Origin: an uncultured Eubacteriales bacterium
GTDB taxonomy: Bacteria > Bacillota > Clostridia > HGM11514
Assembly (NCBI GenBank): GCA_902492655.1
Contig: CABUMF010000007.1
Location: 1,191 to 65,190 of the forward strand
Length of the DNA: 64,000 nt
Reading direction: 5' to 3'
In this document: one piece after another, positions 15,435 to 44,565 of the stretch
How the letters are laid out: every line of letters starts with the position of its first letter
Position numbering within the stretch: position 1 is the stretch's first letter
The notes under the pieces: model-generated
What the model was told of the DNA's origin: nothing
The model's input: the letters and a program-made list of their open reading frames with translations, nothing else
Database searches by the model: none
Position numbers and translations under genes: made by a program

Positions 15435-18017
15435 TTATTTTGTTACCATGAACGGTGTAAATGTGTATGTGCCTCTCTCTGTTATAGCGTCACCGAATAC
15501 TCTTACAGCAAAGCAGCCGTCTTGGGAAATGGTGTCAACGGGGAGCTCAATTGAATTTGTACCGTCGGATACCGTCACGCCTGCTTTTTCGAGCAATGCG
15601 GCATTGTAGTTGTCAATCTTCACATACTGGATGCAGTTGAATTCATTGTAGGTTGTGCCGTTCAGAATAAAGCTGTTGGAATTTTGTTTTTCGCCCAAAG
15701 AGATAGTAGGAGTTTTGGGAGTTACATCCTTAAAGGAAACCACCAAAGCCGCGTTTGCGTTAGGAGTAACCTTAATTACGCAAGCCTCGTCCACCTTAAC
15801 GGGAGTAACATCCTCGCCTGCGAAGGAAACAGCTTCAATTTCATAGCCCGAAGCCGGAGTAACTGCGATTTCGGCTTCAACGCCCTTTTCCAAAGTGATT
15901 GCATCGCCGTTTGCAACGTTTGCTCCGTCAACCTTAACCGAGCCGCCGTCTGAAATATTGGCGGAAACGGTAACCTCCTCGGAAAGGAATGTAATCTTAA
16001 CATCATCGAGGCAGATTTTAAGATTGCGAGCGTCAAGGAGTGCCTGAAGTCTTGTGGTAGCGGCAGCCTCATTCAAAACGCCGTCAACGGTATTTTCGTC
16101 GATAGCCTGTTTTGTGAGCTGATAGAGAACATGGCTTTCTTCCTTGCCCTGGTTCAGACCCTTAAACTCAAGCTGAAGATTTGCGACATCAATGGAAGAA
16201 ACGGACTCTGCACCGTCACGGGTTGTATGGATTTCAGTAGCCGTAAAGGTAGGCGCGGTAGCACTTCTCCAACCGTTCTCGCCCTCGTTTCCGGATGTAC
16301 TTACATAGAACTGAGTTCTCGGTGCACCAGCCGCTGCCCATGAACCCCAACCGGTATTAGCCCATTTATCAAGGCTTGCGCCGCTGAAGTTAAAGAAGGG
16401 CTGAGCCTGGCTTGCATTGCTCATATTTGTGCCGTTGTCCATGTACTTATACTTAAAGGAATATGTGTACTCTTTTCCTGCATTAACCTTAAATCCGGGA
16501 GCGCTTTTGGTAAATCTCGGATAGAAGTCAAAAACATCTTCCCTTACAACATTATTATTCACCTTTTTCCAAGCATTAATAAGAGTCTGTGCCTTAAAGT
16601 TCTTGATTACAATGTATGTGTTGCCGGTTTCATCGGTTTCAAAAGCACCTTCATAGCCGGAGGGGTTAATAACATTCCAGCCGTTAGTCAAGCTGCCTTC
16701 TTCATATGCATTAAAGTTATCGCTGAAAACAGTTACAGAACTCGGAACGGAAATATTAAGCGTACCGTCCGAAGTTATATCGGAGCCGGGGATAACAACC
16801 TTGTAAACGCCGTCTGAAAGTACAGGAGTAACGGCTGTGCCGTTGTATGTAACAGTCGGCTGATAAGCTGTGGTTATTTCGTATGTAGTGCCGAAGTAAT
16901 CGTTAACGGTAACCGTACCGCCGTTTGCCACGGCTGTAGATTCAGTGCACCCCGAGCCTGTGTTTGTGATAGCACGAACTGTAGCGTCGCCTTTAATTTT
17001 AACAGTGTCGGTATAATATGTGGTTTCTGCTGAGAAGGTGACATTATCTATACCGAAGCCGAAGTTTGCTTCTTCCATAACCTGTGCAAAAGCTGCGGAT
17101 CTCGTTGCGGATTTAAGAGCGGAGCAGTCCTCTCCGAGGCTCCATTCTCTGCAAAGCTGATCTTCTGTAAATGTACCGCCGTTAGCAACCAATCCTACCT
17201 CGTCGCCGTAGAGGTCACCGGGCTCGATAGTGAAGGTGTAACCTTCAAGAGGCTCCTCACCGCCTTTCCCATCTGCCTGGGTAAAGCCCGGTCCCACATA
17301 AGCCTTGTTGGCTATTAAAAGCTTAAGGAGGGCATCGTAAATACTAACCTCGAAGAAAAAGCTGTCGATAGTACCCACCGTACCGTTGGGAGCGGGAGTA
17401 GTATCTTTATCGGAAGTGGTCAGAAGATAGTTAAAGGGTTTTCCCGTATATCTTCTCCAACCGCTTGAAAGATTCTCCTGTGTCTGTTTTGCCCTATCAC
17501 CGGTATTGTTTTCGCCGGTGTAAGCTCCGAGCGATAAATAATACTGGTTAAAAGCGTTCCACTTATTACTTCTCCAACCGAGAATCTTGTTTGCGCCGGA
17601 CATACTATTGATACCCGAAGTACCTGCGTCCAAAGCGGAAACCGTACCTGCGGAAACCTTTGCAAGGTCCCAAGAAAGTGCGTATTTCTTTCCTGAGATG
17701 TAGGGTATTTTTTTACCCACTATGAGCCTGTAGGCAAGCACAACAAACGACCTTTTGTCTGCCGCGTCCGCTTTCGGGAGCGAAGCAAGCTCGTCCGGGT
17801 CGATTGACACGGCGCCGTACTTATTTCCGGTACCGTCGTCAAGAACGCTGTTAATCTTGCCGGCATCCGATGATTGCTTTACGCCGTCCTCAAAGTCTCT
17901 TAAAAAGACCGTGATTGTACCGGGAGTGCCTTCTGCGGAAACAGAAACCACGGAAAGGCTTGTAATGCAAGTCATAACCATGAGCATCGCCAGTACCAAG
18001 GATAAAGTTCTTTTCAT
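15435..18017 (-). CDS. Secreted multidomain protein (861 aa from ATG 18017) with the same unrecognised N-terminal domain A as the giant protein, Ig-like domains and an unrecognised C-terminal roughly 90-aa domain
   Basis: Signal peptide MKRTLSLVLAMLMVMTCITSLSVVSVSAEG; N-terminal roughly 400 aa similar to N-terminus of 18242..26971 protein; C-terminus similar to C-termini of 27269..28942 and 30071..31741 proteins. Confidence 0.7.
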   Translation of the reverse strand: MKRTLSLVLAMLMVMTCITSLSVVSVSAEGTPGTITVFLRDFEDGVKQSSDAGKINSVLDDGTGNKYGAVSIDPDELASLPKADAADKRSFVVLAYRLIVGKKIPYISGKKYALSWDLAKVSAGTVSALDAGTSGINSMSGANKILGWRSNKWNAFNQYYLSLGAYTGENNTGDRAKQTQENLSSGWRRYTGKPFNYLLTTSDKDTTPAPNGTVGTIDSFFFEVSIYDALLKLLIANKAYVGPGFTQADGKGGEEPLEGYTFTIEPGDLYGDEVGLVANGGTFTEDQLCREWSLGEDCSALKSATRSAAFAQVMEEANFGFGIDNVTFSAETTYYTDTVKIKGDATVRAITNTGSGCTESTAVANGGTVTVNDYFGTTYEITTAYQPTVTYNGTAVTPVLSDGVYKVVIPGSDITSDGTLNISVPSSVTVFSDNFNAYEEGSLTNGWNVINPSGYEGAFETDETGNTYIVIKNFKAQTLINAWKKVNNNVVREDVFDFYPRFTKSAPGFKVNAGKEYTYSFKYKYMDNGTNMSNASQAQPFFNFSGASLDKWANTGWGSWAAAGAPRTQFYVSTSGNEGENGWRSATAPTFTATEIHTTRDGAESVSSIDVANLQLEFKGLNQGKEESHVLYQLTKQAIDENTVDGVLNEAAATTRLQALLDARNLKICLDDVKITFLSEEVTVSANISDGGSVKVDGANVANGDAITLEKGVEAEIAVTPASGYEIEAVSFAGEDVTPVKVDEACVIKVTPNANAALVVSFKDVTPKTPTISLGEKQNSNSFILNGTTYNEFNCIQYVKIDNYNAALLEKAGVTVSDGTNSIELPVDTISQDGCFAVRVFGDAITERGTYTFTPFMVTK
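16880..18017. repeat. About 1.1 kb DNA repeat (copy 1) shared with 25862..26971
   Basis: Long stretches of near-identical nucleotide sequence (e.g. ggtagtatctttatcggaagtggtcagaagatagttaaagggttttcccgtatatcttctccaaccgcttgaaag vs ctgtagcggaagtggtcagaagatagttaaagggttttcccgtatatcttctccaaccgcttgaaag). Confidence 0.6.
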
Positions 18018-18178
18018 GAATATATCTCTCCATTTCAAAAAATTTGGCATCACACCATATTTAAATTTTAACATATTCTCCGCTTATTTTCAATATTTTC
18101 CCCAAAGAATTATTGCACAAATATTTCAATCATTTTTTGTGCATAACGACCAAGAAGGGCATAATAAAGATAAGAAGC

Positions 18179-18211
18179 GAACCGCCCGGGGGGGTTTCCC
18201 GGGGCGGTTCG
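18179..18211 (-). terminator. Terminator of giant surface protein gene
   Basis: GC-rich hairpin gaaccgcccgggggg..ccggggcggttc immediately after stop 18242. Confidence 0.4.
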
Positions 18212-18241
18212 CGAAAGAAGTTTTGAATACTAAAATTTTAA

Positions 18242-21200
18242 TTATTTAACCAATCTGTAGATAAGGCTTGCCGCCTGAGCACGGGTTGCGTTGGCGTTCG
18301 GTGCGAACGTACCGTCACCCATACCGGAGATAAGACCTACCGAGGAAGCCGTATCAACAGCCGCCTTAGCCCACTTTGCTATATCAGCCTTGTCGGAGAA
18401 TGCTTCGATACCGCCGTTAGCGCCTGCCTTACCAAGGTAAGAGTAAGCGTTCACGATGATAACAGCCATTTCCTGACGGGTGATGTTATCGTTCGGTCTG
18501 AAGTAGCCGTCAAAGCCTGTGATAATGCCTGCATCTGCGCAAGCGCCCACATAAGGAGCGAACCATTCGCCGTTTACATCCTTGAAGGAAGCTTCCTTAT
18601 CGGGGAGCTTGAGAGCTCTTGCGATAATAGCGGCAAATTCTGCTCTTGTGATGTTGCGGTCAGGTTCAAAGAGGTTGTCGGAAACGCCCGAAACAATACC
18701 TGCCTTGTTCATAGCCACAACCTCAGCCTTAGCCCAGTGGTTAACCATGTCGATAAACGGATTGTCGGCATTGGGGCTTGTGGTGCTTCCGGAGAAGAAG
18801 CCGTTGCTTCCCGTACCTGCACCGCCGCCGTTTACGGCAACTCCGCCGATTGCTCCTCCGGGGCCTTGACTTTCTTCATTGGAATTATTTACGCTTACCT
18901 GGAATATAACAAACTCCGTAATGAAGTTAGACCATATAACAAGGTCATCGCCGACATTAAGTTTCGCCGCACCTAAGCCTTCGCCTATAGCAGCCTGAGC
19001 CGAAGCTGCGGAATCCTCCTCAGCCTTTGTCTTAATCTCGACATACTTGCCCGTTTCATCCTTGTAGTAAATTCTCTTGCCCTTAGCGCCGGGGAATGAG
19101 AATCTTACAAGAGCGTCGGAAGTTATAAACTCATCGCCCGTCGAGTAAACACCCTCAACCGTTATAGCATTTGAAGGCAGAGCTCCGCTTGGTGATTCTA
19201 AGAAATGCGGAGGGGTGAAATATGAGAACAGTTCATTGCCGGTAAATTCAGCAGCTTCGGGTACATCCATTGTTGCCGGACCTTTCGGGGTATCAACTCG
19301 CGCTTTTATTCTTGGAAGAGGTTTGCCGTTTTCCATTTGGAGCGTAAGCTTAGCGTTGTTGCTTACCACAAATTCAGCATTTCTGATATCGTAGTTGATT
19401 TTATAAATCGTATCGCCGGTAACATCAGCGCTGCTGTTTGCGCTTTCCTTAGCTGCAGCAAGAGCCTGATTTATAACAAGCGTCTGTCTGTCAACCGCAA
19501 TCTGGGTTGTAAGCTCGTCGGCTGCAACTTCCTTACCGTCGGAAACAGCCTTATTGAGAGCTTCAATCTTATCTGCGGGATACTGACCGTAATCGCTTCC
19601 TATCTTAGCAAGTTTGAGGAATGCTTCAGCGCCTGCGATAGCCGTGTTAAGACCTTCATAATCCACAACAGCGGGAGAAATCACAACATTGATGTTGGAT
19701 GCCTCTTGCGTGTGGTTAGCAAAGCCGAGAGCACCTACCTTACCTAAGAGTGCAGTTCCGTAGGTCTCGTCATAAACGAGCACGCCGTCAACATAGATAA
19801 GAAGTCTTACGCCCTCTGTGGTATCAACCGCACCGAAAGCGATTTCGTAATCCTTACCGAATTCGGTAAAGAATGTGTTGTCAGCGGAATAGAACGGAGT
19901 TGTCTGTTCGGGCTTCCATTCCTGAGCCTCATATGTGTCGTTGTGGAACCACATAAGGAATCCGGAATTACCGTTAGCCCAAATCTGACCGTTATAGCCG
20001 TTGGATCTTACATATGTTGCAGCCTGGAGAATATGAGCCTCATCGCCGGGGATCTTGGTTACGCCGGAATCGTCGGTGAGTTCAAATCTCATTCTGAATG
20101 TGAATATCTTGTTAAGGTAAAGCTCATCGGTGTAAAGAACCTTTGTCTGAGCAGGGATTGTGAGAGTACCGTTTTCAAATACAGCCGCACCACCCTGTGC
20201 ATAGGTCCAGCCGTCTTTATCAGCCAGCATATCCTTAATGTTAAGGTATTCCAATGTTGAAATCTGCGCAAGCTTAAATGCGTCGATAGCATTCTTAAGA
20301 GCACGAACTGCGTTGTTCACTTCGTACTGATAAACGTTGTTATTAGCGAACACATCAGCGGCACTATTAAATTCAGTCTTGAATTTAGCGAGAGCCTCTG
20401 CGGGATACATACCGTCTCCCTCACCAACAACCGCGGACTTAATGAGAGCGTCAGCCGTTTCGAGAAGCTCGGAAAGCTCACTCTTGTCAACAGCGGAGGA
20501 ACCTGCGGAAATCTGAATAGGAGCAGATTCAATCATTTTGCCGTAGCGGTTATCCTTATCGTAAGGAATCATTGTGTACTTAACGAATTTACCTGCCTGG
20601 AGCTCAGAGAGGAGAATTTCGTTGTCGCCCTTGCCGAGGATTCTCGTATAAGGACCTTTCTCGCTTTCAGCCTCGTACCATACAAATACCGAGTGACCTT
20701 CGGGATCGCCGTCGGGATCGGAGTAAGAGTAAGAAGCCTTCAATATTCCGCCGACCGCAGGGTTACCGATAATCTTAGCGTCGGCAGCCTTGGGAGCGTA
20801 GCCTGTGCAGTAATCGTCATAACCTACGCCGATTGTGCTTGTGTCGATGTTTTCAAAGCCCGTTGCGGACTTTCTAACCTCTGCAAGACCTTCCTCTGTA
20901 AGAGAGAAGTCCTTACCGTAGTCCTTGAAGATAGACTTTCCGTTTACAACGTCGGTTGAGGAAGCGTAGTTATTTGAAACAACCTCGTTTCCGGTACGGG
21001 AAATACCCTCGGGTCTGTTCTTCAGGTTCTTGATATTTACGTTGTTATCGAATGTGTTTGACTGAGACGGAGCGAAGGTTTTAACATATTTAACCATTCC
21101 GTCATAGTCCTTAGCGTTTGCGAAAGCGAACATCTTTTCAGCTTTTTCCGAAGAGAAGTTACTGAAGAAGGGTTCCCAAATAGTTCCCTTGTAGTGTTCG

Positions 21201-24200
21201 ATCCAGGCTTCGTTTTCGCAGTAGTTCTTAATCTTGTTCCACTGAGAGCCGTTTACATTAAATGTCCAGTTGCCGGCAGAGCCCGAAGGCTTGCAGTCAT
21301 AGTTATAGGTAATGTACTGACCCTGCGTGGGAGAGTCGAAATTCGTTCCAACCCATGACTGGAAGTAGTTCGAGCAAGGATTGTCAACAAAAATGTTGTT
21401 GTGAACGTTGTAATACTGACCGCCGTTAGTCTTAATCGGGTAAGAGGAGGTGGAGCCGCCTCTGTCCTCGGTAAGAGTTGCGCGGTAGAAAATATTGTTG
21501 TAGATGTCGGCACCGAAGTTACCGTCATCGCCGAATATCGACTGGTTCCAGCCGCCGTTGTAGAGGTTACCGTTATCGTGGAAGTAGTTGTTCCTGATTA
21601 CGATACCAAGTACCGACGGGTCACGGCCCCAGTAGATAGCGCCCATATCGCCGTGTTCCTTAACGGAGTTGTAGATTTCGTTGTATTCCATAACATGATC
21701 GTTACCGCCGAAGGAAATAGCCTCATGCTGGTTGTTGTAGATGATGTTATGAGAAACCAAAACGCCTACGCCGTTCATGGCAACAGCGGGAGAATATGAA
21801 GTTTTGGTTCTTGCGTTATCCGAGAAAATGCTGTTGCTTACAACATTGTTGCTCTGTGTCAGTGTTTTTCTGTCGCCTCCGCCGATTGAAATACCGCCGT
21901 AGCCTGTATCGTAAACATGGCACTTGTCAACGGTGATGTTGTAACCGGAGAGGGATGCGGCATTTGAACCGCCGTGAGCCATAACGCTGTCACGGAAAGT
22001 AATGTGATTTCCGTTATTAACATTGATAAATCTTTCCCTTGAATTTCTGAAGTTGATGCCGTCAAATGTGATATAAGAAGCACCGTTCATAGAAATCATG
22101 GAGCCGGTGTATGTTGAAAGCTCAACATCCTCGGTACCATCTATGGGATTTGTGGGATAGAAGTAAGCAATCTTTCTTTCCCTGTCGATGAAGCTTTCGC
22201 CGGGCATATCAATTTCCTCAAGAATGTTGAAGAAATAGAGCGGTAAACCGCCTGCGGTCTGATAGGAAGTACCGTACTTTGTCATAAACGACTTGTCGGT
22301 TGCATCTATAGAGCCTATCTTATAAATATTTGAGTACCAATGGTAGGCAACATGGAGGTCAACCATACCGTCATCAACAACAGCCTGAGTATTCCAGAGA
22401 GCAGTTCTGTTTTCGGGATCGGGGTAGCCAACCTTTGAAGGCTGAGTCTTATCTGCGCAAACAACTCTTTCGGAATTAATCATAGCCGTGTCGGGCTCAT
22501 CGTTGGGCCATCTTGCGTCGATGAGGCGTTCGTTGTTGACAATAAGATCCATTGCACGCCAACTGTTTGTGAATATAGGCGAGCCGTTGCTGTTCCAGCC
22601 GTATTCGGGGATAGACGGAATTACGCCTTTGTATTCGGAGAGGTCAATCTTATAAAGATTAGCTCTTGCCTGGTCGTCAATGATTCTGTCGAGAATCTTG
22701 TTGCCGTACTTATCCTTATCATCCTCGGTAACCTTTGAAATCTTGTTAGCCGAGATTTTCTGTGAGCCTACAAAGTCAACCTCTTCGTTGTTGTAAGCCT
22801 TGTAAACGATAGTAGTGTTTTCGTTACCGGAATCAGAGGCTGTGAAGGTGATAGCCGAGGTAATGGGGTATCTTCCTTCTCTGAAGTAAACAGTTACCTC
22901 GCCTGCCGGAAGAGCCTGAGCGGCGATCATAGCCTTGATTTTTTCCTTAGCCGGTGTAATTGTAGCGAAAGGCTTACCCATTGAACCGTCGCCTGTTGAA
23001 TCGTTACCGTTTGGAGCAACGAAGAATGCAAGCTCGCCTACAAAGAAGGGAGTTGAAGGCACATTCTTCCAAATGTTTCCTGCCACACTCTTAGCTGTAA
23101 CAACCGCTCTTATGTTCTTGGCGTTGTCGGAAGCCTTTGTAACATAAGTCTTGCCGGTTGCGCCTTCGATGTCTTCCCAAACCTCGCCGTTAAGTACCTG
23201 CCATTTTATCGTGGAATCGTCAGCGTCCTTACAGGAATAATCATAGCTTACTGTAAGAGTAGAGCCGATTTCCTTATTTCCCGTAACCTTAACGTTTGAA
23301 ACAACGGGAGTAGCATCGGTAATTGTTTCGATGTCGATTACAAGCTCTTTTGCGGCGATTTTGTTTGCGGGGATTGTAAACTCAAGAACCGAAGGATCTT
23401 CAAGATTAATTTCCTCGCCGCCGAAGGTAATGGATTTAACGGAATCGTTTGCATCGCCCGTAAGCTTAATGGAAGCCTTAAGTCCGTAGTAATCGTTAGC
23501 CGAAACGGTGCCGTTTGCGGTAAGCTTAACAGTTTCGTTTGTATAAGTATTTGTTGTGAAAGTAACCTCAGCGTTTCCGTTAATTTTAACGGGGATGTTG
23601 TAGAATGCGGCATCAGCCTTCATTTCAACATCGTCCATCTGAAGCTCAAGCCCTGCATCCTCGAAAGCCTTGTTGATAGCGGCTTCACGCTTAGCGGATT
23701 TAAGAGGTGAGCAATCCATGCCGAAGTTCCATTCCTTGCAAAGCTCTGCTCTTGTAAATTTACCGCCGTTTTCCTTAAGACCTTCCTCGTCGCCGTAGAG
23801 GTCGGAATCGGTTATGGTGAACTTATAAGAGTCTGCATTTTTTAAGCCTTCGCCCATGTAAGCCTTGTTTTCAACCAAAAGCTTTGTGATTGCATTATAG
23901 AAGTTCGACTGCATAAACAAGCCGTTGATTGTAGCGGAAGGAATATCGCTTTCGCCGTCCCACAAGCCGTAGGAAATACCGCTGTAGCCTACAGTTTGCC
24001 AGCCCGTAGCGGAGTCATAAGCAGAAACGCTCTTAATAGTTGACGAGCCTTCCTGGGTGTTGTGCTGACCGTACCACTGACTTGTTTTAACGGGGGTAGA
24101 GCCGTTATAAGTCTTAAGGTAGCCGCCGCTCATAGCGTTAAAGCCGGAAGAACCCTTGACGATAGAGAAGTAATCGCCGTTGTTAACGCCTCTGTACTTC

Positions 24201-26971
24201 CAGGTAAAGGAGTAGCTCTTGCCGTTTATGTATTCTACTTTGTCCGAAATATTGAATCTGTACTGCCAAACCTCGGAGCCGGGGCGTTTGTCTGCGCCGG
24301 CAACCGTTGCGGCATCGGAGCCCGATATGTTTTTAAGGGTATAGTAGTGATTATCGCCTTCTGTTTCAATGCCTGTACCGCCCGAAACATTGGCTGCTCC
24401 GTCCTCGAAGTCCTCGGAGTAAACAATAACCGTGCCTTCCGTACCTGCCTCGCGGAAAGCAACCTCAATCAATGCATCGGCGGTAACGGCAAATACAACT
24501 GTGCCGCCGTCAGCGGAAATATCCGCTATCTTACCGTCAATCTTGAGGTAATCCACCTTGTAGCCGGAGTCGGGAGTAACCGTAATTGATACATCCGAGC
24601 CGTTTACAACCGAAGTTGCAGCTCCGTCGTCGGAAATTACCTTTCCGTTTACGGAAAGCTTACCGCCCACGCCTACATTGGCGGTTACGGTACGCATCTG
24701 AGCAGTCTTGGTTGAAACCTTGATTGTCGAAGCGTCCGTAAATTTATATTTTGTTTCAAAAGATGATGCATTTTCGGTAATTTCCTGTACCGCACCGTCA
24801 ATTTCAACAGAATTCAAAACATAGCCTTCCTTGGCGGTGATAGCAATACCCGACTCAAAGTTCATCGGAACCGCAATGCTTCCGCCGTTGGTGGCAGTCT
24901 TTTTGTTAACGGAAACGGTTGCACCGTCGTCAACTGTAACGGTAACATTCTTTGTTTCCGCAAGAGTTGTAACCGAAAGATTGTCAAAGCAGATTTTGAG
25001 GTCTTTCTCTTTAAGGAGAGTACCCAAAGCCGTAACTGCGGCATCTCTGTTAACTGTTCCGTCGGTTGTGTTTGCATCTATAGCCTGCTTTGTAAGCTGA
25101 TAGAGAATAGAGCTTGCATCCGTGCCGTTATTGAAGCCCTTGAACTCAAATTCGTTGTTAGAAAGACCTATTTCTGTCAAAGGCTCACCGTCAACACGCT
25201 TTGTAAATGCGCTGATAGCAGTAAATGCAGGAGCGGCAACGCTTCTCCAGCCGTCCTCACCGAGGGAGCCTGCATTACTGTTGTAGAACTGAGTATAGTT
25301 AGCGGTGTCATTGGGAACCCAAGAGTACCAGCCGTTCTTATCCCATTCGTTAACACTGCCGCCTGTGAAGTTAAAGAAAGTCTGAGCCGGCGAAACATTG
25401 GTTAACGAAGTGCCGTTTTGGGTGTACTTATAGCTGTAAGAAACAGTATAAGCTCTACCGATGTCAAACTTATATCCGGGATTTTTAATGCGGAATCTCG
25501 GATAAATGTCTTTGACGTTGCCCTTTGCGATATAAAGATCAACCAAAGCTTCGGGCTTGAAATTCTTTATTACAAGATAAACATTGCCGGTTGAATCAGC
25601 TTCAACAGCACCGTCATATCTAACAGAATCATGTATTTCCCAACCGCCGCTTAAAGCGCCGGGAGTAAAGTCTTGGAAATCCTCACCGTAGATTTCAACT
25701 TCCTTTTCGCCTGCCTTAACTCCGATTTTAATATTAGCACCTCCTGCGATTTCGGAGGGAGCGATAGTAGCTTTGAAAACATCGCCGTCCTGAACGACTT
25801 TAACATCCTTATCGTTGTATGTAACGGAAGGAACGCCGTCAGTTGAAATTTCTAATGTAAGACCGAAGTAATCGTTAGCGGTAAACGTACTGCCGCTTGG
25901 CACAATGTTAGATTCCTCGCAGCCAGAGCCCGTGTTTGTTATAGCACGAACTGTAGCGTCACCCTCAACATTAACAGTTTGATTGTAATATGTTGTTTCA
26001 GCCGAAATTCTAACGTTATCTATACCGAATCCGAAGTTTGCATCTTCCAAAGCCTTTGCAAAAGCTGCGGATCTCTTTGCTGATTTAAGAGCGGAGCAGT
26101 CCTCTCCGAGGCTCCATTCTTTGCAAAGCTGCTCGGCTGTAAATTCACCACCGTTAGCAACCAATCCTTCCTCGTCGCCGTAGAGGTCACCAGACTCGAT
26201 AGTGAAGGTGTGACCTGTAAGAGGAACACCAGCTGAAGCTTCAAAGCCGCCACCCACATAAGCCTTGTTGTCCTTTAAGAGCTTAAGGAGGGTATCTGAA
26301 ATACCAACCTCAAAGAAAAGGTTACCGATAGAGCCAACCGTTCCGTCGGGAGCGGGAGTAAGGTCTGTAGCGGAAGTGGTCAGAAGATAGTTAAAGGGTT
26401 TTCCCGTATATCTTCTCCAACCGCTTGAAAGATCCTCCTGTGTCTGAACAGCCTTATCGCCCGTGTTATTTTCCCCTGTGTAAGCATTAAGGGATAAATA
26501 ATACTGGTTGATAGCGTTCCACTTGTCACTTCTCCAACCGAGAATCTTGTTTGCGGTTGCCATACCTTCGATGCCCGAAGTACCTGCTCCCAAAGCGGAA
26601 ACCGTACTTCCGGAAACCTTAGCAAGGTCCCAAGAAAGTGCGTATTTCTTTCCTGAGATGTAGGGTATGTTTTTACCGACCCTAAGCCTGTAGCCAAGCT
26701 CAACACCCGGTCTTTTGTCGACTGATGTAGACTTAGGTGCCGAAGCAAGCTCGTCGGGGTCTATTGACACGGCACCGTACTTATTTCCGGTACCGTCATC
26801 GAGGACGCTGTTAATCTTGCCGGCATCCGAAGCCTGCAAAGTACCGTCCTCAAAGTCTCGTAAAAAGACTGTGATTGTACCGGGCGTGCCGCCTTCTGCC
26901 AAGACAGAAAATGCCGTAAGACACGACATAACCATGAGCATAGCCAGTACAAGGGTTACTACTCTCTTCAT
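18242..26971 (-). CDS. Giant (2909 aa) SLH-anchored cell-surface protein: signal peptide, two copies of unrecognised domain A, Ig-like domains, right-handed parallel beta-helix domain, ConA/LamG-like domain, three C-terminal SLH domains
   Basis: Signal MKRVVTLVLAMLMVMSCLTAFSVLA; beta-helix repeats (NNIIYNNQHEAISFGGNDHVMEYNEIYNS); three SLH repeats at C-terminus (FIDMVNHWAKAEVVAMNKAGIVSG..., FKDVNGEWFAPYVGACADAGIITG..., FSDKADIAKWAKAAVDTASSVGLISG...). Confidence 0.8.
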   Translation of the reverse strand: MKRVVTLVLAMLMVMSCLTAFSVLAEGGTPGTITVFLRDFEDGTLQASDAGKINSVLDDGTGNKYGAVSIDPDELASAPKSTSVDKRPGVELGYRLRVGKNIPYISGKKYALSWDLAKVSGSTVSALGAGTSGIEGMATANKILGWRSDKWNAINQYYLSLNAYTGENNTGDKAVQTQEDLSSGWRRYTGKPFNYLLTTSATDLTPAPDGTVGSIGNLFFEVGISDTLLKLLKDNKAYVGGGFEASAGVPLTGHTFTIESGDLYGDEEGLVANGGEFTAEQLCKEWSLGEDCSALKSAKRSAAFAKALEDANFGFGIDNVRISAETTYYNQTVNVEGDATVRAITNTGSGCEESNIVPSGSTFTANDYFGLTLEISTDGVPSVTYNDKDVKVVQDGDVFKATIAPSEIAGGANIKIGVKAGEKEVEIYGEDFQDFTPGALSGGWEIHDSVRYDGAVEADSTGNVYLVIKNFKPEALVDLYIAKGNVKDIYPRFRIKNPGYKFDIGRAYTVSYSYKYTQNGTSLTNVSPAQTFFNFTGGSVNEWDKNGWYSWVPNDTANYTQFYNSNAGSLGEDGWRSVAAPAFTAISAFTKRVDGEPLTEIGLSNNEFEFKGFNNGTDASSILYQLTKQAIDANTTDGTVNRDAAVTALGTLLKEKDLKICFDNLSVTTLAETKNVTVTVDDGATVSVNKKTATNGGSIAVPMNFESGIAITAKEGYVLNSVEIDGAVQEITENASSFETKYKFTDASTIKVSTKTAQMRTVTANVGVGGKLSVNGKVISDDGAATSVVNGSDVSITVTPDSGYKVDYLKIDGKIADISADGGTVVFAVTADALIEVAFREAGTEGTVIVYSEDFEDGAANVSGGTGIETEGDNHYYTLKNISGSDAATVAGADKRPGSEVWQYRFNISDKVEYINGKSYSFTWKYRGVNNGDYFSIVKGSSGFNAMSGGYLKTYNGSTPVKTSQWYGQHNTQEGSSTIKSVSAYDSATGWQTVGYSGISYGLWDGESDIPSATINGLFMQSNFYNAITKLLVENKAYMGEGLKNADSYKFTITDSDLYGDEEGLKENGGKFTRAELCKEWNFGMDCSPLKSAKREAAINKAFEDAGLELQMDDVEMKADAAFYNIPVKINGNAEVTFTTNTYTNETVKLTANGTVSANDYYGLKASIKLTGDANDSVKSITFGGEEINLEDPSVLEFTIPANKIAAKELVIDIETITDATPVVSNVKVTGNKEIGSTLTVSYDYSCKDADDSTIKWQVLNGEVWEDIEGATGKTYVTKASDNAKNIRAVVTAKSVAGNIWKNVPSTPFFVGELAFFVAPNGNDSTGDGSMGKPFATITPAKEKIKAMIAAQALPAGEVTVYFREGRYPITSAITFTASDSGNENTTIVYKAYNNEEVDFVGSQKISANKISKVTEDDKDKYGNKILDRIIDDQARANLYKIDLSEYKGVIPSIPEYGWNSNGSPIFTNSWRAMDLIVNNERLIDARWPNDEPDTAMINSERVVCADKTQPSKVGYPDPENRTALWNTQAVVDDGMVDLHVAYHWYSNIYKIGSIDATDKSFMTKYGTSYQTAGGLPLYFFNILEEIDMPGESFIDRERKIAYFYPTNPIDGTEDVELSTYTGSMISMNGASYITFDGINFRNSRERFINVNNGNHITFRDSVMAHGGSNAASLSGYNITVDKCHVYDTGYGGISIGGGDRKTLTQSNNVVSNSIFSDNARTKTSYSPAVAMNGVGVLVSHNIIYNNQHEAISFGGNDHVMEYNEIYNSVKEHGDMGAIYWGRDPSVLGIVIRNNYFHDNGNLYNGGWNQSIFGDDGNFGADIYNNIFYRATLTEDRGGSTSSYPIKTNGGQYYNVHNNIFVDNPCSNYFQSWVGTNFDSPTQGQYITYNYDCKPSGSAGNWTFNVNGSQWNKIKNYCENEAWIEHYKGTIWEPFFSNFSSEKAEKMFAFANAKDYDGMVKYVKTFAPSQSNTFDNNVNIKNLKNRPEGISRTGNEVVSNNYASSTDVVNGKSIFKDYGKDFSLTEEGLAEVRKSATGFENIDTSTIGVGYDDYCTGYAPKAADAKIIGNPAVGGILKASYSYSDPDGDPEGHSVFVWYEAESEKGPYTRILGKGDNEILLSELQAGKFVKYTMIPYDKDNRYGKMIESAPIQISAGSSAVDKSELSELLETADALIKSAVVGEGDGMYPAEALAKFKTEFNSAADVFANNNVYQYEVNNAVRALKNAIDAFKLAQISTLEYLNIKDMLADKDGWTYAQGGAAVFENGTLTIPAQTKVLYTDELYLNKIFTFRMRFELTDDSGVTKIPGDEAHILQAATYVRSNGYNGQIWANGNSGFLMWFHNDTYEAQEWKPEQTTPFYSADNTFFTEFGKDYEIAFGAVDTTEGVRLLIYVDGVLVYDETYGTALLGKVGALGFANHTQEASNINVVISPAVVDYEGLNTAIAGAEAFLKLAKIGSDYGQYPADKIEALNKAVSDGKEVAADELTTQIAVDRQTLVINQALAAAKESANSSADVTGDTIYKINYDIRNAEFVVSNNAKLTLQMENGKPLPRIKARVDTPKGPATMDVPEAAEFTGNELFSYFTPPHFLESPSGALPSNAITVEGVYSTGDEFITSDALVRFSFPGAKGKRIYYKDETGKYVEIKTKAEEDSAASAQAAIGEGLGAAKLNVGDDLVIWSNFITEFVIFQVSVNNSNEESQGPGGAIGGVAVNGGGAGTGSNGFFSGSTTSPNADNPFIDMVNHWAKAEVVAMNKAGIVSGVSDNLFEPDRNITRAEFAAIIARALKLPDKEASFKDVNGEWFAPYVGACADAGIITGFDGYFRPNDNITRQEMAVIIVNAYSYLGKAGANGGIEAFSDKADIAKWAKAAVDTASSVGLISGMGDGTFAPNANATRAQAASLIYRLVK
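25862..26971. repeat. About 1.1 kb DNA repeat (copy 2) of 16880..18017
   Basis: As above; direct orientation, both encode the 5' domain A of adjacent genes. Confidence 0.6.
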
Positions 26972-27016
26972 TTCATTACCTCTTTCCTTAATTATTTTAC
27001 CTTAAACGGCAAGCGG

Positions 27017-27030
27017 ATGACTTAAGTCAT
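27017..27030. promoter_or_regulatory. Perfect 14-bp palindrome ATGACTTAAGTCAT upstream of giant gene start
   Basis: Read directly; lies about 45 nt upstream of ATG 26971 in its promoter region. Confidence 0.25.
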
Positions 27031-27204
27031 TCACTTAAATTCATTATATCATATAAAATAACTTTTAGCAAGGACAAAGCGGTTCGCATATTGCACAAAT
27101 TCCGTTACACGTTTTTGTTGATTATAACCAAACAATGAAACAAAAAAGTACCTCTTTTGAAAAAAAGCTTCCTATTATATATATTAAAAAAACCCCTTGT
27201 TTTA

Positions 27205-27254
27205 TTTTCAAGGAGGAAAAGCAAAAAGAAAGCGAGAGCAGTCGCTCTCGCTTC
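27205..27254 (-). terminator. Terminator of 27269..28942 gene
   Basis: Hairpin gaaagcgagagc..gctctcgcttc followed by U-rich tract on minus strand. Confidence 0.45.
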
Positions 27255-27268
27255 CCAAATTCAAAGTA

Positions 27269-28942
27269 TTAATTTGCATTCATGTAAGGAGTAAATGTAT
27301 AAGTGCCGTCAGCTGTGATAGCATCACCGAACACTCTTATTGCAAATGAACCGTCTGCCGCAATGCTAACCGCAGGAAGTTCAAGAGAATTTGTACCGTC
27401 CGAAAGAACAATGCCGGCACCTGCAACATCCAAAGTGCTGTAGTTGTCAATCTTTGCATACTGGATATAGTTTACCTGGTTGTAAACCGTTTCGCCGATT
27501 GTAAAGCTGTCAGCCTTTTGGTTTGCACCCTTAACGAGTGCGGGAATTTTTGGCGGAATTACCTCAAATTCAACATTGAGAACCGCGTCAGAGGTAGGAG
27601 AAATTGTAATCTGGCTGGCAGCTTCACGGTCGGCAGGAGTGATGTCCTCGTTATTATAGGTAACGGAAGCTATCTGGTAACCGCTGTCGGGAACAATATC
27701 AAGCTTAACAGCTGTTCCGGATACAACGGGAAGGCTTTCGTTGTTTGCAAATGTATAGGGTTTAGCGGAATTTTCCACATCCCCTGCCTTAACGGAACCG
27801 TTTGCTCCAACCTTAACGATTGTGTCAACTGTGTTTGATTCAAGCTTCTGAATTTTCATATCAGTAAAATTAACCAGGAAATCGTCAGCTGTATTACCGA
27901 GTCTGAGCTGAAGATTTGTGGTTGAGTAGTCTGCCGTTGCGCTAAGATCCGAGGGAGCAAAATCAATATCGAAATGAGTTCTTGTCTTTGTAGTAGCGAA
28001 ACTATATTGTTTGTAATTGCTTGCATCTCCGTTGAAGAACATCAAATAGTTCGTTGCACTGCTTGCAGAAGCTGACGAATCAATCCAAGCGTCAAAGGAA
28101 AGTCTGTACTTGCCTGTTGCCTCAAATGTATATGCCTGATTAAGCTTTATTGAAGGATTTTTATAGTTTAACTTAAAGATTTTATCTCCGTCTGTATCGG
28201 TTAATTCTTCAAACGAAGGGCATACACCTTCTGTAGCATTAAAATGGAAGTCGTCTGCGCTGTCTCTTGAAATATAGGTATAATTCTTTGTTACATAGTC
28301 GCTTCCCTCGCTCTTGTTTGTAACGAGCTTCAAATCCTTAATGTAAGCTGTGATGTTTTGGGGCATACTCATGTGGAAACGAATCATACCGTAATAAGTC
28401 TTTTTTGGGGATGTGAAGTAAGACTGAGTTGTTAAAGGAGTCTGGAAATCAAGCTTGTAAGTCCATTCGGTGTAGCCTTCAGCATCGGTTTCACCCTTAA
28501 CAACGGAATCTCTCGAAATAGGGAAGTAATTACCGCCCCAAAGCTTCGAGCCTGATGTATAACTGGGATCATCGGTGTTAATACCGTAAGCTCCGATACC
28601 ACCGTAACCGTCCATCGCAACACCCTTAATCTTGTATTTAAGAGTATATGTAGCTGTTTCGTCAGCTTCCACCGGAAGTATGTACCAGTTTACCTGCAAT
28701 CTTCCGTTTCCTTCATACTTGCACGCATTTTCCGTTGCGTCCCAGGAAACGGATGCACCTTGACCACCCCAACCGTATGTGCTAACATCGGCTGCGGACG
28801 AAAGTGAAAGAATAGTTCTTTCGTAATTTTGAGTTTCTGCGGCAAAAGCAACAACACTGATGCATGAAAGAATCATACAAAGCGTCAAAGCAAGTGCCAA
28901 AAGTTTGGATAATTTTTTCATTTTGATAGTGCCACCTTTCAA
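27269..28942 (-). CDS. Secreted protein (557 aa), paralog of 30071..31741; beta-sandwich-like N-terminal region, Ig-like domain and unrecognised shared C-terminal roughly 90-aa domain
   Basis: Signal MKKLSKLLALALTLCMILSCISVVAFAAE; C-terminus IPPKIPALVKGANQKADSFTIGETVYNQVNYIQYAKIDNY...TYTFTPYM shared with two other proteins. Confidence 0.7.
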   Translation of the reverse strand: MKGGTIKMKKLSKLLALALTLCMILSCISVVAFAAETQNYERTILSLSSAADVSTYGWGGQGASVSWDATENACKYEGNGRLQVNWYILPVEADETATYTLKYKIKGVAMDGYGGIGAYGINTDDPSYTSGSKLWGGNYFPISRDSVVKGETDAEGYTEWTYKLDFQTPLTTQSYFTSPKKTYYGMIRFHMSMPQNITAYIKDLKLVTNKSEGSDYVTKNYTYISRDSADDFHFNATEGVCPSFEELTDTDGDKIFKLNYKNPSIKLNQAYTFEATGKYRLSFDAWIDSSASASSATNYLMFFNGDASNYKQYSFATTKTRTHFDIDFAPSDLSATADYSTTNLQLRLGNTADDFLVNFTDMKIQKLESNTVDTIVKVGANGSVKAGDVENSAKPYTFANNESLPVVSGTAVKLDIVPDSGYQIASVTYNNEDITPADREAASQITISPTSDAVLNVEFEVIPPKIPALVKGANQKADSFTIGETVYNQVNYIQYAKIDNYSTLDVAGAGIVLSDGTNSLELPAVSIAADGSFAIRVFGDAITADGTYTFTPYMNAN

Positions 28943-29082
28943 AATAATTTTTATATTTTAATTATAGCACGAAAAATATTGAAGATAATAGAAAAAAAGT
29001 ATTGCAAAATATCAAAATAGTATGGTATAATATAAAAAAAAGAAATTTTTTTCTTGCGCTATAATAAAAACTGTTAAAACAG

Positions 29083-29952
29083 GTGATAAAAATGGAATAT
29101 CTTACAGCCGAAAACATTGATTTTTCATTATTGGCAGCCGGAAAATACTCCACCGAGGGAAAGGTGAAAGATAAGGGTGCGGTGTCGAACAAGAAGCTTA
29201 TGGAGCTTTTCAGATTAAGCTGGAATTATTATGTAATAGATCTGATAACCGAAGGCAAGGCGATTATAACGACAAACGGTGTTAAAAGGGAATATAAGCC
29301 GGGGGAAATAAACCTAAGAAAGCCGGGGGAAATAACCCAGCAGGACCCTTATTGCGTTTACTCATGCGTATATGCGCATATACAGATAAAAAAGGCAGGT
29401 GTGTCAGGCGACAGCAAAACGGGATACTCCTGCATATTGGATTCCCTTCCCGAGAAGCCGAGCTCCAAGAATTTTGATCATCTTGTAAACCTTTGCATGA
29501 ATCTTCAGAGATATACCTCGGCAACGGGAGAATGTGCGGAGTATTTCAAAAAGCAGTTGGCGCTCAGGATAATTGCCGAGCTTTGCGAGGCGTATGCCGT
29601 CGACGGGCTTCCCAACAGCAAGAAGTACAACACCAGGATAAACCGAGCATTGGATTATATAGAAAACCAAATTTATTTTGAAAAAATAAGCATAGACGAA
29701 TTGGCAGAAATTTCGGGGCTCAGCACAAAGTATTTCCAAAGAGCGTTCAAGGAAGCAACCGGCGCAACCCCGGCAAAATATATGCTTAACAGAAAAATGG
29801 AGCTTTCAATGGAGTATGTTGTGGGGAACAGCTACACCATTACCGAAATTGCGGATATTTTCGGCTTTCAGAATGTATCGTACTTTATACGGAAGTTTAA
29901 GGAATACTACGGAATAACGCCGGCGCAGTACAGAAACGGCCGCAAAGAATAA
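29083..29952 (+). CDS. AraC-family transcriptional regulator
   Basis: C-terminal dual HTH (IDELAEISGLSTKYFQRAFKEATGATPAKYMLNRKMELSMEYV...ITEIADIFGFQNVSYFIRKFKEYYGITPAQYR); TTGCAA-18-TATAAT promoter upstream. Confidence 0.8.
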   Translation: MIKMEYLTAENIDFSLLAAGKYSTEGKVKDKGAVSNKKLMELFRLSWNYYVIDLITEGKAIITTNGVKREYKPGEINLRKPGEITQQDPYCVYSCVYAHIQIKKAGVSGDSKTGYSCILDSLPEKPSSKNFDHLVNLCMNLQRYTSATGECAEYFKKQLALRIIAELCEAYAVDGLPNSKKYNTRINRALDYIENQIYFEKISIDELAEISGLSTKYFQRAFKEATGATPAKYMLNRKMELSMEYVVGNSYTITEIADIFGFQNVSYFIRKFKEYYGITPAQYRNGRKE

Positions 29953-30020
29953 AAGGGCTTTCAGTCCTTTTATTTTTTTGACTTGTTGTGCCGAATTGCA
30001 AAAAAATTCAAATCCTCCGG

Positions 30021-30054
30021 CAAATAAAGAAAGCGAAGGCAACCCTTCGCTTTC
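30021..30054 (-). terminator. Terminator of 30071..31741 gene
   Basis: Hairpin gaaagcgaagg..ccttcgctttc plus U-tract on minus strand. Confidence 0.45.
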
Positions 30055-30070
30055 TAAAGCCGTTAAGCTA

Positions 30071-31741
30071 TTATTTTGTAACCATGTAAGGCGTGAATGT
30101 GTAAGTACCGTCAGCTGTGATAGCGTTACCGAATACTCTGATTGCAAATGAACCGTCTGCAGAAATGCTAACCGCAGGAAGGTCAAGAGAATTTGTACCG
30201 TCCGAAAGAGTAACGCCGGCACTTTCTACATCCAAAGCACTGTAGTTGTCAATCTTTGCATACTGGATGTAGTTTACATTGTTGTAAACCGTTTCGCCGA
30301 TTGTAAAGCTGTCAGCCTTTTGGTTTTCGCCCTTAACGAGTGCGGGAATTTTAGGCGGAATTACTTCAAACTTAACATCGAGAACAGCGTCAGATGTAGG
30401 AGTAATTGTAATCTGGCTTGCAGCTTCGCGATTTGCAGGGGTGATGTCCTCATTGTTGTAAGTAATGGAAGCTATCTGGTATCCGCTATTGGGAGCAACA
30501 TCGAGTGTTACCGGTGTTCCGGATACAACGGGGAGGCTATCGCCGTTTGAAAGCGTATAGTCAACATATGCGGTTGACTTTTTAACAGAACCGTCGCCGC
30601 TTACCTTAACTATTGTATCCACCGTGTTAGAAGCAAACTTCTGAAGTCTTATATCCGTGATATAGTAGATGAAATCTGCCGGATAATCATTTGCACCGAT
30701 TCTGAGCTGAAAGTTAAGGGTGGAGAAAGCAGCAGCTTCGCCAAGTGTTGCGGTATCAAAAACCAAGTCAAAATGCTTTCTTGTTTTGCCGAGTGTGAAA
30801 TCCACCTGTGTGTATTTTTTGGCTGCGGAATCAAACAAGATTCCTATGCTTGACTTACTTTCATATGAGCTCGGGCAGGACTCATCGAGCCAAGCGTCAA
30901 AGGAAAGTCTGTACTTTGTGTTAGCATCGAAGGTATATGCCTCAGCAAGCATAATTTTGTCTTTCATATTAAGCTTCCAAATCTTATCTCCGTCAGCGTC
31001 GGTTGATACAACGGGTTCCGTATGATAGTATGTACCGTATCTGAAAAGCGGAACTCCGTCTATCTTCCATTGATTAACAAACATATAATCGGAAGTTACA
31101 TAGGCTTCTCCTTGGCTCTTGTTTGCAACGAGCTTAAGATCCTTGACATAAGCTGTATATACTTCATTATTCGGCATGTTTACAAAGAAACGAACTACGC
31201 CGGAATAAGCCAATCTTTCTCCCGAGATTTTGTTGGATATAACCGAATCAAAGTCGAGGTCATAAGTCCATTCGGTGTAGCCGTTTTCATCGGTTGCGCC
31301 TTTTGTTTTCGTTGCCGCAACACTGGAATCCTTCCAGTAGCTGGTACCAGGGCCGAGGGATGCCGAATCATCTGAATTAACAACGAAAACACCGACATTT
31401 GAGGGTTCAATTCCCTTAACCTTAAGTGTGAGAGTGTACTTAGCGCCCTGCACCAGTCTGAAATAGTGATAATTCGTCTGGAATCTTGTTCCGGTCGAGG
31501 CTCCGTTAGATACAAACTTGAAAGCATTTTCCGTTGCATCCCATGTACCGGTTGCAGAATTTCCCGCCCAGGTGTAATTAGTAACATCATTAGCGGAATT
31601 GAGTGTAAAAATCGTATCCTCATAGGAATCCGTTTCTGCGGCAAAAGCAACAACACTGATGCATGAAAGAATCATACAAAGCGTCAGAGCAAGTGCCAAA
31701 AGTTTTGTCAGTTTTTTCATTTTGATTGTGCCACCTTTCAA
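30071..31741 (-). CDS. Secreted protein (556 aa), paralog of 27269..28942
   Basis: Identical signal peptide and near-identical C-terminal domain to 27269..28942 product; diverged central region. Confidence 0.7.
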   Translation of the reverse strand: MKGGTIKMKKLTKLLALALTLCMILSCISVVAFAAETDSYEDTIFTLNSANDVTNYTWAGNSATGTWDATENAFKFVSNGASTGTRFQTNYHYFRLVQGAKYTLTLKVKGIEPSNVGVFVVNSDDSASLGPGTSYWKDSSVAATKTKGATDENGYTEWTYDLDFDSVISNKISGERLAYSGVVRFFVNMPNNEVYTAYVKDLKLVANKSQGEAYVTSDYMFVNQWKIDGVPLFRYGTYYHTEPVVSTDADGDKIWKLNMKDKIMLAEAYTFDANTKYRLSFDAWLDESCPSSYESKSSIGILFDSAAKKYTQVDFTLGKTRKHFDLVFDTATLGEAAAFSTLNFQLRIGANDYPADFIYYITDIRLQKFASNTVDTIVKVSGDGSVKKSTAYVDYTLSNGDSLPVVSGTPVTLDVAPNSGYQIASITYNNEDITPANREAASQITITPTSDAVLDVKFEVIPPKIPALVKGENQKADSFTIGETVYNNVNYIQYAKIDNYSALDVESAGVTLSDGTNSLDLPAVSISADGSFAIRVFGNAITADGTYTFTPYMVTK

Positions 31742-31871
31742 AAATAATATATTTTATATTTTGATTATACCATATTATTATTTAGTTTACAAGAATAATT
31801 TTACAAACAATATGCACATATATTTATTTTTTCAAGTTAAATTTTTGTGAATTTTAACAAATGAGAGAATT

Positions 31872-37372: not shown

Positions 37373-37497
37373 CTTTTAGGGCTGAAGAAAAATAGTGCAG
37401 AATGGACAAACTGAGGCAAAACAAGATTTTTGCTTGTTTTGCGTACCCGAAGCTGTATGAGATACTGCGAGAGGCGAAGTTTGTTCATAGCATAAAG
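37369..37497 (-). repeat. B-element copy (inverted relative to 57281..57399) lying in fucO 3' UTR
   Basis: About 125 nt with about 85% identity to reverse complement of 57281..57399, including the hairpin region with compensatory changes. Confidence 0.5.
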
Positions 37498-37558
37498 TAT
37501 ATAATTTTATTCAAAATTATTGTACTTTATGCGATCTGTGCATTTTTATGCAGTCCAA

Positions 37559-38716: not shown

Positions 38717-38773
38717 TCCTTTTTTTGATTAAGTTAATGTAACTTAACTATATTTTACACCGAAAAACAAAGT

Positions 38774-38791
38774 TTGTCAATATTTTGACAA
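38774..38791. promoter_or_regulatory. Palindrome TTGTCAA-tatt-TTGACAA in fucO promoter region
   Basis: Read directly; about 60 nt upstream of fucO ATG; may simply contain the -35 element. Confidence 0.25.
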
Positions 38792-38989
38792 TATTTTGTT
38801 TCATTGTTTTTAAAATAAAATTTATCACGAAGGCCACACATTTATCATTTCCCAAAAACAAACAAATACTCATGAGCAATGAGCAAAAAATTATATTTTA
38901 CGCTGTTGGTTTTAATGAACGCAAAAAAACCGCAATTTCGTGAAAAACTGCGGTTTTCTTTATGGGAAATAACTCTAATTTTGATAAAA

Positions 38990-39041
38990 TGCACCCCCCT
39001 ATAAGGAGTTTTGCACCCCCTTATAGCAAAAGTGCACCCCC
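38990..39041. repeat. Three direct repeats of TGCACCCCC spaced 21-22 bp apart
   Basis: aaatgcacccccctataagg / ttgcacccccttatagc / gtgcacccccttgttta, just beyond the 3' end of the restriction endonuclease gene. Confidence 0.4.
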
Positions 39042-39045
39042 TTGT

Positions 39046-41973: not shown

Positions 41974-42085
41974 TCGCTGCACAACGATATTATTATAACA
42001 GATTGAGCGGAATTTGTCAAGCATTTTTTAACCATTATTACCTAAAGTCAATTTACGCAATAAAATGGTTAAGAAACGACAAGAA

Positions 42086-43754: not shown

Positions 43755-43767
43755 GAGGAAGCGGAAA

Positions 43768-44553: not shown

Positions 44554-44565
44554 GGAGGATAAAGC

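Follow-up and report, generated by a model that had tools for sequence, protein, structure and literature searches.

Gram-positive gut bacteria gain access to complex glycans of the diet and the host in large part through SLH-anchored multimodular enzymes. The SLH-anchored glycoside hydrolases (GHs) described in Clostridia and Paenibacillus, such as the ChiW chitinase (PDB 5GZT) and the S-layer-associated endoglucanases and xylanases, share a layout in which a signal peptide is followed by several modules resembling carbohydrate-binding modules (CBMs) or Ig/FN3 domains, then by a catalytic domain, and finally by a cell-wall-binding triplet of SLH domains at the C terminus. Here we describe a locus encoding a protein of this layout in a 64,000-nt stretch of DNA (the window) from an uncultured Clostridia bacterium of the human gut (GenBank assembly GCA_902492655.1, contig CABUMF010000007.1, positions 1,191 to 65,190). 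The locus comprises four minus-strand genes, for a 2,909-aa protein (the giant) and three smaller secreted proteins (p879, p557, and p556, named for their lengths), and a plus-strand gene for an AraC/XylS-family regulator of 289 aa that lies between p557 and p556. The type of system is thus already known, being an SLH-anchored multimodular carbohydrate-active enzyme (CAZyme) with accessory β-sandwich modules and an AraC regulator, and both predicted folds of its shared modules are common. In contrast to the described SLH-anchored GHs, however, the modules that we term domain A, domain B, and the C-terminal module have no counterpart among described families, the putative catalytic domain is GH141-like, and three apparently noncatalytic partner proteins are encoded alongside. 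What is new is two unannotated and very rare sequence families, domain A and the C-terminal module, their co-occurrence, and the repeated presence, next to SLH giants, of an FN3-like module whose position is strictly terminal.

With moderate confidence, we read the whole as a cell-surface carbohydrate-foraging locus. In this model the signal peptide would direct export of the giant and the three SLH domains would fix it to the cell wall, where it would display a GH141-like β-helix that probably cleaves glycan, together with several noncatalytic β-sandwich modules. Domain A, a lineage-restricted jelly-roll of predicted CBM4/22 type with a helical insert, would most likely recognize the glycan substrate. 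The p879, p557, and p556 proteins would act as secreted noncatalytic partners, built from the same or other β-sandwich modules and kept at the cell surface, on the giant or on the wall, by the terminal FN3/Ig-like module. The four genes, each with its own promoter, would probably be coactivated by the embedded regulator via a shared upstream element.

All five open reading frames (ORFs) could be matched to the ORF list of the window (879, 2,909, 557, 289, and 556 aa), and the genes, shared modules, SLH anchor, β-helix, and AraC regulator described in an initial annotation of this DNA were each recovered in their places by the ORF list, BLASTP, and Pfam (Table 1). From its N terminus, the giant contains a signal peptide, domain A, an Ig-like domain, domain B, two InlB-B-repeat-like domains, a second copy of domain A, and another Ig-like domain, followed by an AIR9-like Ig domain, the GH141-like β-helix, an AIR9 Ig domain, a FIVAR domain, a LamG-like region, a second FIVAR domain, an unassigned region, and the three SLH domains. 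The Beta_helix, IG_AIR9, and FIVAR assignments were confirmed by Pfam, and the SLH region contains the PF00395 triplet and matches the SLH structures of Bacillus anthracis Sap (6bt4 and 3pyw, E 1e-21). Pfam thus bears out the SLH triplet and β-helix of the initial annotation, whereas its ConA/LamG-like domain is best called possible, as the PF06439 match falls below cutoff and the region has no PDB sequence match. Residues 2505-2735 of the giant match nothing in Pfam or NCBIfam, and a Pfam search for Dockerin_1 and Cohesin found neither in any of the four proteins, that region of the giant included.

The β-helix is the candidate catalytic domain of the giant. GH141 is a small family with few characterized members, which include a fucosidase active on rhamnogalacturonan II (BT1002 of Bacteroides thetaiotaomicron, PDB 5MQP, the enzyme on which the family was founded), a xylanase (XynE/Cthe_2195), and endo-fucanases (PMC10154630, PMC5593877, PMC12786026). 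Searched against the PDB as a single sequence, giant residues 1316-2060 match 9rx2 (E 2e-14) and 5mqp (E 1.6e-3), and a five-sequence profile of the same region strengthens these matches to E 9e-40 and 6.6e-12, respectively. The closest solved relative is 9rx2, titled "parallel beta-helix repeat protein," for which a literature search found no paper. The alignment with BT1002 can be trusted only over the N-terminal cap and a single linker segment, and the sole alignment that reaches the region of its catalytic residues, Asp523 and Asp564 (PMC10154630), scores 1.4 bits and is not reliable. Because the alignment misses this region, we call the β-helix GH141-like rather than a proven GH141 member. 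The β-helix region is 82% identical to that of the ortholog in a syntenic locus (L005, described below), compared with 68% over 2,464 aa for the giant as a whole, as expected of a catalytic core. Judged by these sequence relationships, the β-helix is probably the glycan-cleaving domain of the giant and related to GH141.

The same architecture could belong to adhesins or S-layer-associated proteins that attach the cell to host mucus, food particles, or other cells, with the β-helix as a binding scaffold. Indeed, SLH, InlB-B-repeat-like, Ig-like, and FIVAR modules are typical of Gram-positive surface adhesins, the catalytic residues of the β-helix are putative, the small proteins diverge more quickly than the giant and the flanking genes, and the regulator has a match (E 2e-16, below cutoff) to NCBIfam TIGR04094, a family of AraC regulators found beside surface-antigen genes. 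We nevertheless regard this reading as quite improbable: the β-helix is similar in sequence to a GH family and to a solved relative and is more conserved than the giant overall, domain A resembles CBMs and not adhesin domains, and one domain A relative (P0010) carries a dockerin-like sequence.

The window encodes a second, related β-helix protein of 785 aa (45740-48097, minus strand), which matches the β-helix of the giant (HMM E 1e-25) and ends in a Cu_amine_oxidN1 domain in place of SLH domains. Its gene adjoins KduI, SDR, and GH88-like genes (42204-45702, plus strand) and thus probably belongs to a cluster for unsaturated-uronate or pectin utilization.

Domain A is the most extensively shared module of the locus. 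In an all-against-all BLASTP comparison of the four minus-strand proteins, residues 20-835 of p879 are 54% identical to residues 1-826 of the giant, and giant residues 825-1304 align again with p879 residues 33-505 (29% identity, E 1e-53), in agreement with the third, diverged copy that had been proposed inside the giant. The shared module, initially taken to span ~400 aa, is real, yet it resolves into a domain of ~300 aa and a constant companion, an Ig-like domain (...NDYFG-TY...) that trails domain A in every relative read. Domain B is distantly related to domain A, as shown by hhalign over 228 columns (probability 77%, E 2e-5). Domain A matches no Pfam or NCBIfam family at E ≤ 0.1 and has no PDB sequence match, even by profile at E ≤ 10. 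Together with the corresponding searches for the C-terminal module (below), these results uphold the proposal that both shared modules fall outside recognized sequence families.

The predicted structure of p879 residues 48-356 has a CBM-type jelly-roll core, and its structural matches, at 10-15% sequence identity, include CBM16 and CBM61; the CBM16 match comes from an "S-layer associated multidomain endoglucanase." By predicted fold, domain A therefore shares the β-jelly-roll core, of galactose-binding-like type, of the CBM4/CBM22-type modules. It differs from these in lacking any CBM Pfam match and in its length, ~300 aa compared with ~150, owing to a conserved helical insert of ~100 residues. 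This insert is the best-conserved part of the domain: across 20 copies of domain A, diverged to ~20-25% identity, most invariant positions fall at residues 257-325. In p879 numbering the invariant residues are N84, Y131, G205, Y259, G261, G263, F281, T282, G290, E292, D316, C317, L320, and R325, with YG-E and DC--L-S--R as the conserved motifs. The cysteine pair originally described as conserved turns out to be a subfamily trait, as only its second member, C317, is invariant. Based on the model, domain A is most likely a glycan-recognizing module.

Domain A might itself be a new catalytic jelly-roll (a GH, lyase, or esterase), in which case the short domain A proteins would be enzymes. Jelly-roll folds do include enzymes, such as GH16 and PL7; the polar residues N84, Y259, E292, D316, C317, and R325 are invariant in all 20 copies and cluster in the insert; and the minimal proteins P0017 and P0018 contain little else. 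However, the best structural matches are all noncatalytic CBMs or lectins, and two or three tandem copies precede a separate putative catalytic domain in P0011 and in the giant, an arrangement typical of binding modules, which makes a catalytic domain A very improbable and leaves glycan recognition as our preferred role.

The three smaller proteins have in common their last ~90 residues. p879 consists of a signal peptide, domain A, an Ig-like domain, domain B, an InlB-B-repeat-like domain, and the C-terminal module; p557 consists of a signal peptide, two unassigned N-terminal domains, an InlB-B-repeat-like domain, and the C-terminal module; and p556 is a duplicate of p557 (57% identity by BLASTP). 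Residues 624-876 of p879 are 36% identical to residues 290-554 of p557. The N-terminal domains of p557 matched no family when whole proteins and ten subregions were searched against Pfam and NCBIfam, and hhalign found no relationship of either domain to domain B or to the other. Alignment of the last ~90 residues, together with an HMM search, confirms the claim that the module ends p879 and both 556/557-aa paralogs and is not in the giant. Signal peptides, read by eye from the sequence as K/R-rich residues followed by a hydrophobic segment and a site of A-x-A type, are present in four of four proteins. The LPXTG motif with hydrophobic tail is absent, p879, p557, and p556 ending in ...TFTPYMVTK, ...TFTPYMNAN, and ...TFTPFMVTK, respectively. 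A sorting domain like that of the type IX secretion system, which is a Bacteroidota system, was rejected given that NCBIfam detects no sorting domain, Por_Secre_tail included, that SLH domains are present, and that every related record bears a Clostridia name.

The model of p557 residues 464-557 predicts an FN3/Ig-like, seven-stranded β-sandwich for the C-terminal module, with ChiW among its fold matches. The isolated module matched no Pfam family, fn3 included, at E ≤ 5, and its profile gave chance-level matches only against the PDB. By predicted fold, both shared modules are thus ordinary, domain A as a CBM-type jelly-roll and the C-terminal module as an FN3/Ig-like domain. The initial annotation would have been undone by the assignment of both modules to well-characterized families with no co-occurrence pattern; such an assignment is possible at the fold level only, as the sequence families are new and do co-occur.

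The position of the C-terminal module is strikingly constant. In 14 of the 14 complete proteins that carry it, the module ends ≤5 residues from the C terminus, and in none of these is it paired with SLH, β-helix, or dockerin. A protein ending in the module adjoins a β-helix/SLH giant at three independent loci: the window, L005, and the more distant L007. The fixed terminal position suggests retention at the surface, on the giant or on the wall, and we put forward a docking or surface-retention role as a tentative and rather doubtful proposal. Compared with the cohesin-dockerin cellulosomes, the concept would be the same, a small C-terminal module on secreted proteins encoded with an SLH-anchored giant, and P0010 has a dockerin-like end (recognized by eye) where other domain A relatives carry the C-terminal module or SLH. 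In contrast to dockerins, however, the module is predicted to be all-β and FN3-like and not Ca-binding and EF-hand-like, and the window proteins contain no Pfam cohesin or dockerin. The C-terminal module may instead be a passive FN3-like cap or spacer, with p879, p557, and p556 released as soluble glycan-binding or scavenging proteins and their adjacency to the giant reflecting shared regulation or a shared substrate. We take this reading seriously while judging it somewhat unlikely, as FN3 spacers are usually internal, whereas this module is strictly C terminal and mutually exclusive with SLH and dockerin, and proteins with differing N-terminal domains carry it next to a giant in three loci. 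Stronger still would be the joint proposal that the C-terminal module is a new noncovalent, dockerin-like retention module of gut Clostridia, tethering noncatalytic glycan-binding proteins to the giant or the wall in a minimal, cohesin-independent glycan-capture complex, and that the domain A insert (YG-E ... DC--L-S--R) forms a new recognition or catalytic site defining a new CBM or CAZy family; that both parts hold together is improbable.

Members of the C-terminal-module family vary at their extreme end. The modules of the window, L005, P0006, and P0007 stop at ...TPYM(VTK) and lack a terminal β-hairpin of ~20 residues that distant members keep (e.g., P0004, P0013, and the protein encoded at 10478-12196 of L001). 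A 73-aa ORF, P0007, consists of the C-terminal module alone and is found on at least 11 contigs (L001 10001-10222, and also L002 and L003), just upstream of a 572-aa protein with a P0003-like N-terminal domain and the C-terminal module at its end; P0007 has the appearance of a gene remnant or of a free-standing module. The 124-aa P0006, in which an HU-like N terminus (PF00216) precedes the module, is almost certainly an assembly chimera, as it lies on a very short ENA contig of 509 nt.

The embedded regulator, annotated earlier as an AraC-type protein, is confirmed by Pfam (HTH_AraC E 4.3e-21, HTH_18 E 2e-20) and contains the C-terminal double helix-turn-helix. An ortholog of 50% identity occupies the same divergent position in L005. 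The regulator thus shares both its double helix-turn-helix and its divergent layout with AraC/XylS regulators of sugar-utilization and surface-protein genes. Its N-terminal domain is below cutoff for the AraC_binding and cupin families, the sole such match being MPI_cupin_dom (E 0.0078).

A separate promoter-like site and a separate terminator-like hairpin accompany each of the four minus-strand genes, and three of the promoters share an upstream element. The exact 12-mer ATTTGTGCAATA occurs in only two copies in the window, both on the minus strand, upstream of the giant and p879, and a variant, ATATGTGCATAT, lies upstream of p556. The pattern ATWTGTGCAW occurs 4 times in the window compared with 0.66 expected, a number reached by 0 of 100 shuffles, and in the promoters of the giant, p879, and p556 one such site lies exactly 40 nt upstream of the -10 box. 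Ahead of these three sites stands (C/A)ACAAAAA, separated by 11 nt for the giant and p879 and by 21 nt for p556, which forms an imperfect inverted repeat, such that the composite element reads (C/A)ACAAAAA-N11/21-ATWTGTGCAWWW. The p557 promoter contains TTTTGCAATAC and that of its L005 ortholog CGCAATAC, at 33 nt. The perfect 14-bp palindrome pointed out at 27017-27030 does exist, but five such palindromes are present in the window where about four are expected, and the orthologous region of the syntenic relative is not palindromic. Given also its location downstream of the -10 box and the lack of copies at the other promoters, we rejected the palindrome as an operator; the shared 12-mer is the better candidate. 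We infer that the AraC protein acts through this shared promoter element.

Both module families are rare. Word-indexed searches recovered very few proteins, and the homologs of domain A come from an exhaustive profile search, in which scoring of 1.84 billion cluster representatives yielded 17 proteins. Seven of the 17 also end in the C-terminal module, which substantiates the co-occurrence of the two shared modules. When 185,579 species genomes were scanned with patterns of the C-terminal module, three loci emerged, all in metagenome-assembled genomes (MAGs) of uncultured Clostridia, and in JGI metagenomes domain A was found at one locus. A human-gut metagenome contig matches the window. Domain A is fused to GH141-like β-helices in P0009, P0011, and P0022, with two or three copies ahead of the β-helix in P0011 and P0009, and P0022 (2,780 aa) has, besides domain A, the architecture of the giant from the β-helix to the SLH domains (36% identity). 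In contrast to these large proteins, P0004, P0005, P0013, P0016, P0017, P0018, and P0021 are small secreted proteins made up of domain A, an Ig-like domain, and the C-terminal module.

L005, from a Hadza gut MAG (CAKSKB01), is syntenic with the window at 71-77% nucleotide identity and has the order TrkA, TrkH, AraC (divergent), a 538-aa p557 ortholog, and a giant that runs off the contig end. L005 has a single p557-like gene, to which p557 and p556 are each 43% identical, compared with 57% to each other; the duplication flanking AraC is therefore specific to the window lineage. The upstream regions of p556 and p557 are duplicated as well (window 27269-31741 compared with L005 7691-10303). Relative to L005, the small proteins (43% identity) have diverged far beyond the giant (68%) and the flanking trk genes (~77% at the nucleotide level). 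In the more distant L007 (MAG JAZQHN01), a β-helix/SLH protein is directly followed by a 1,091-aa protein that combines different repeated N-terminal domains with InlB-B-repeat-like domains and the C-terminal module, and an AraC-type gene lies nearby.

Several observations weigh against a carbohydrate-foraging locus as drawn here. Neither a sugar transporter nor downstream catabolic genes are encoded within the locus itself. The region of the BT1002 catalytic residues did not align with the β-helix, and no substrate can be named. A Foldseek search with the domain A model gives nothing at E ≤ 1e-3, its top matches being CBM4, CBM27, and calreticulin, and ~115-155 of the 309 residues align in the fold matches; from this partial coverage we describe domain A as a jelly-roll core of CBM type that carries an insert of ~100 residues. 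As the invariant residues cluster in the insert, which the fold matches do not cover, the role of domain A may differ from simple binding. The N-terminal domains of p557 and p556 matched no family, and a CBM identity is not claimed for them. With regard to retention on a giant, P0004, P0005, and P0021 lie after gyrA with no giant nearby, and the L001 member of the C-terminal-module family sits among unrelated genes. Finally, the shared promoter motif could partly reflect descent of duplicated genes.

As both predicted folds are ordinary and the type of system is familiar, the value of these findings lies mainly in annotation and hypothesis generation. They add two module families that are in no catalog and that occur only in a few uncultured Clostridia of the human gut. 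Should domain A prove to bind or cleave a particular glycan, a new CBM or CAZy family would be established and the annotation of these MAGs would benefit, and if the C-terminal module docks, it would represent a new way of assembling surface complexes that uses neither cohesin-dockerin pairs nor sortase.

The sequences around the gene starts suggest that the true starts of p879, p557, and p556 probably lie downstream of the listed ORF starts (Table 1). For p557 and p556 the start is placed at an ATG at listed residue 8, with a conserved AAAGGTGG ribosome-binding site upstream, and an independent public gene call gives 550 aa. For p879 it is placed at M20, because a TG-extended -10 box falls within the longer ORF.

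Table 1. Coordinates of the features of the locus within the window
Feature	Position	Strand	Remarks
p879 gene	15435..18074	-	879 aa; probable true start 18017
C-terminal module of p879, residues 788-879	15438..15713	-	Alignment and HMM
Domain A of p879, residues 48-356	17007..17933	-	Copy used for structure model
Shared 12-mer ATTTGTGCAATA	18111..18122	-	40 nt upstream of p879 -10 box (18065-18070)
Giant gene	18242..26971	-	2,909 aa; secreted, SLH-anchored, multimodular
Three SLH domains, giant residues 2735-2906	18254..18769	-	Pfam SLH E 3.1e-37, 3 stretches; cell-wall anchor
Possible ConA/LamG-like domain, giant residues 2235-2440	19652..20269	-	PF06439 E 0.0021, below cutoff
Right-handed parallel β-helix, GH141-like, giant residues 1316-2060	20792..23026	-	Putative catalytic; Pfam Beta_helix E 2e-8, 2 stretches
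Domain A copy 2 of giant, residues 843-1126	23594..24445	-	Diverged; HMM E 3e-118
Domain B of giant, residues 437-672	24956..25663	-	Distant domain A relative
Domain A copy 1 of giant, residues 26-331	25979..26896	-	HMM E 1e-151
14-bp palindrome	27017..27030		5' leader of giant; judged not significant
Shared 12-mer ATTTGTGCAATA	27089..27100	-	40 nt upstream of giant -10 box (27043-27048); candidate activator site
p557 gene	27269..28942	-	557 aa; probable true start 28921
C-terminal module of p557, residues 464-557	27272..27553	-	Copy used for structure model
AraC/XylS-family regulator	29083..29952	+	289 aa; divergent from p557
p556 gene	30071..31741	-	556 aa; probable true start 31720; p557 duplicate
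C-terminal module of p556	30074..30355	-	Alignment and HMM
Variant 12-mer ATATGTGCATAT	31810..31821	-	40 nt upstream of p556 -10 box (31764-31769)

The locus is wedged between the aro operon and trkAH. Beyond the second β-helix protein and the KduI, SDR, and GH88-like genes that adjoin it, the window also holds a Melibiase-like GH and a sugar ABC transporter, and this wider content fits carbohydrate use. A stretch of low GC content (0.36-0.40) at 38000-42000 contains a C-5 cytosine DNA methylase gene (40097-41551), a neighboring 359-aa ORF without a Pfam match (39046-40125), and a tRNA gene (41885-41973), the only match in an Rfam scan of the window; this stretch may be a restriction-modification island inserted beside the tRNA. 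In addition, an intergenic element of ~118 bp, for which Rfam gives no match, is present at 57275-57391 and 37380-37506, with ~75% identity between the two window copies, and is 85% identical to an intergenic stretch on the unrelated contig of L001 (9565-9681).

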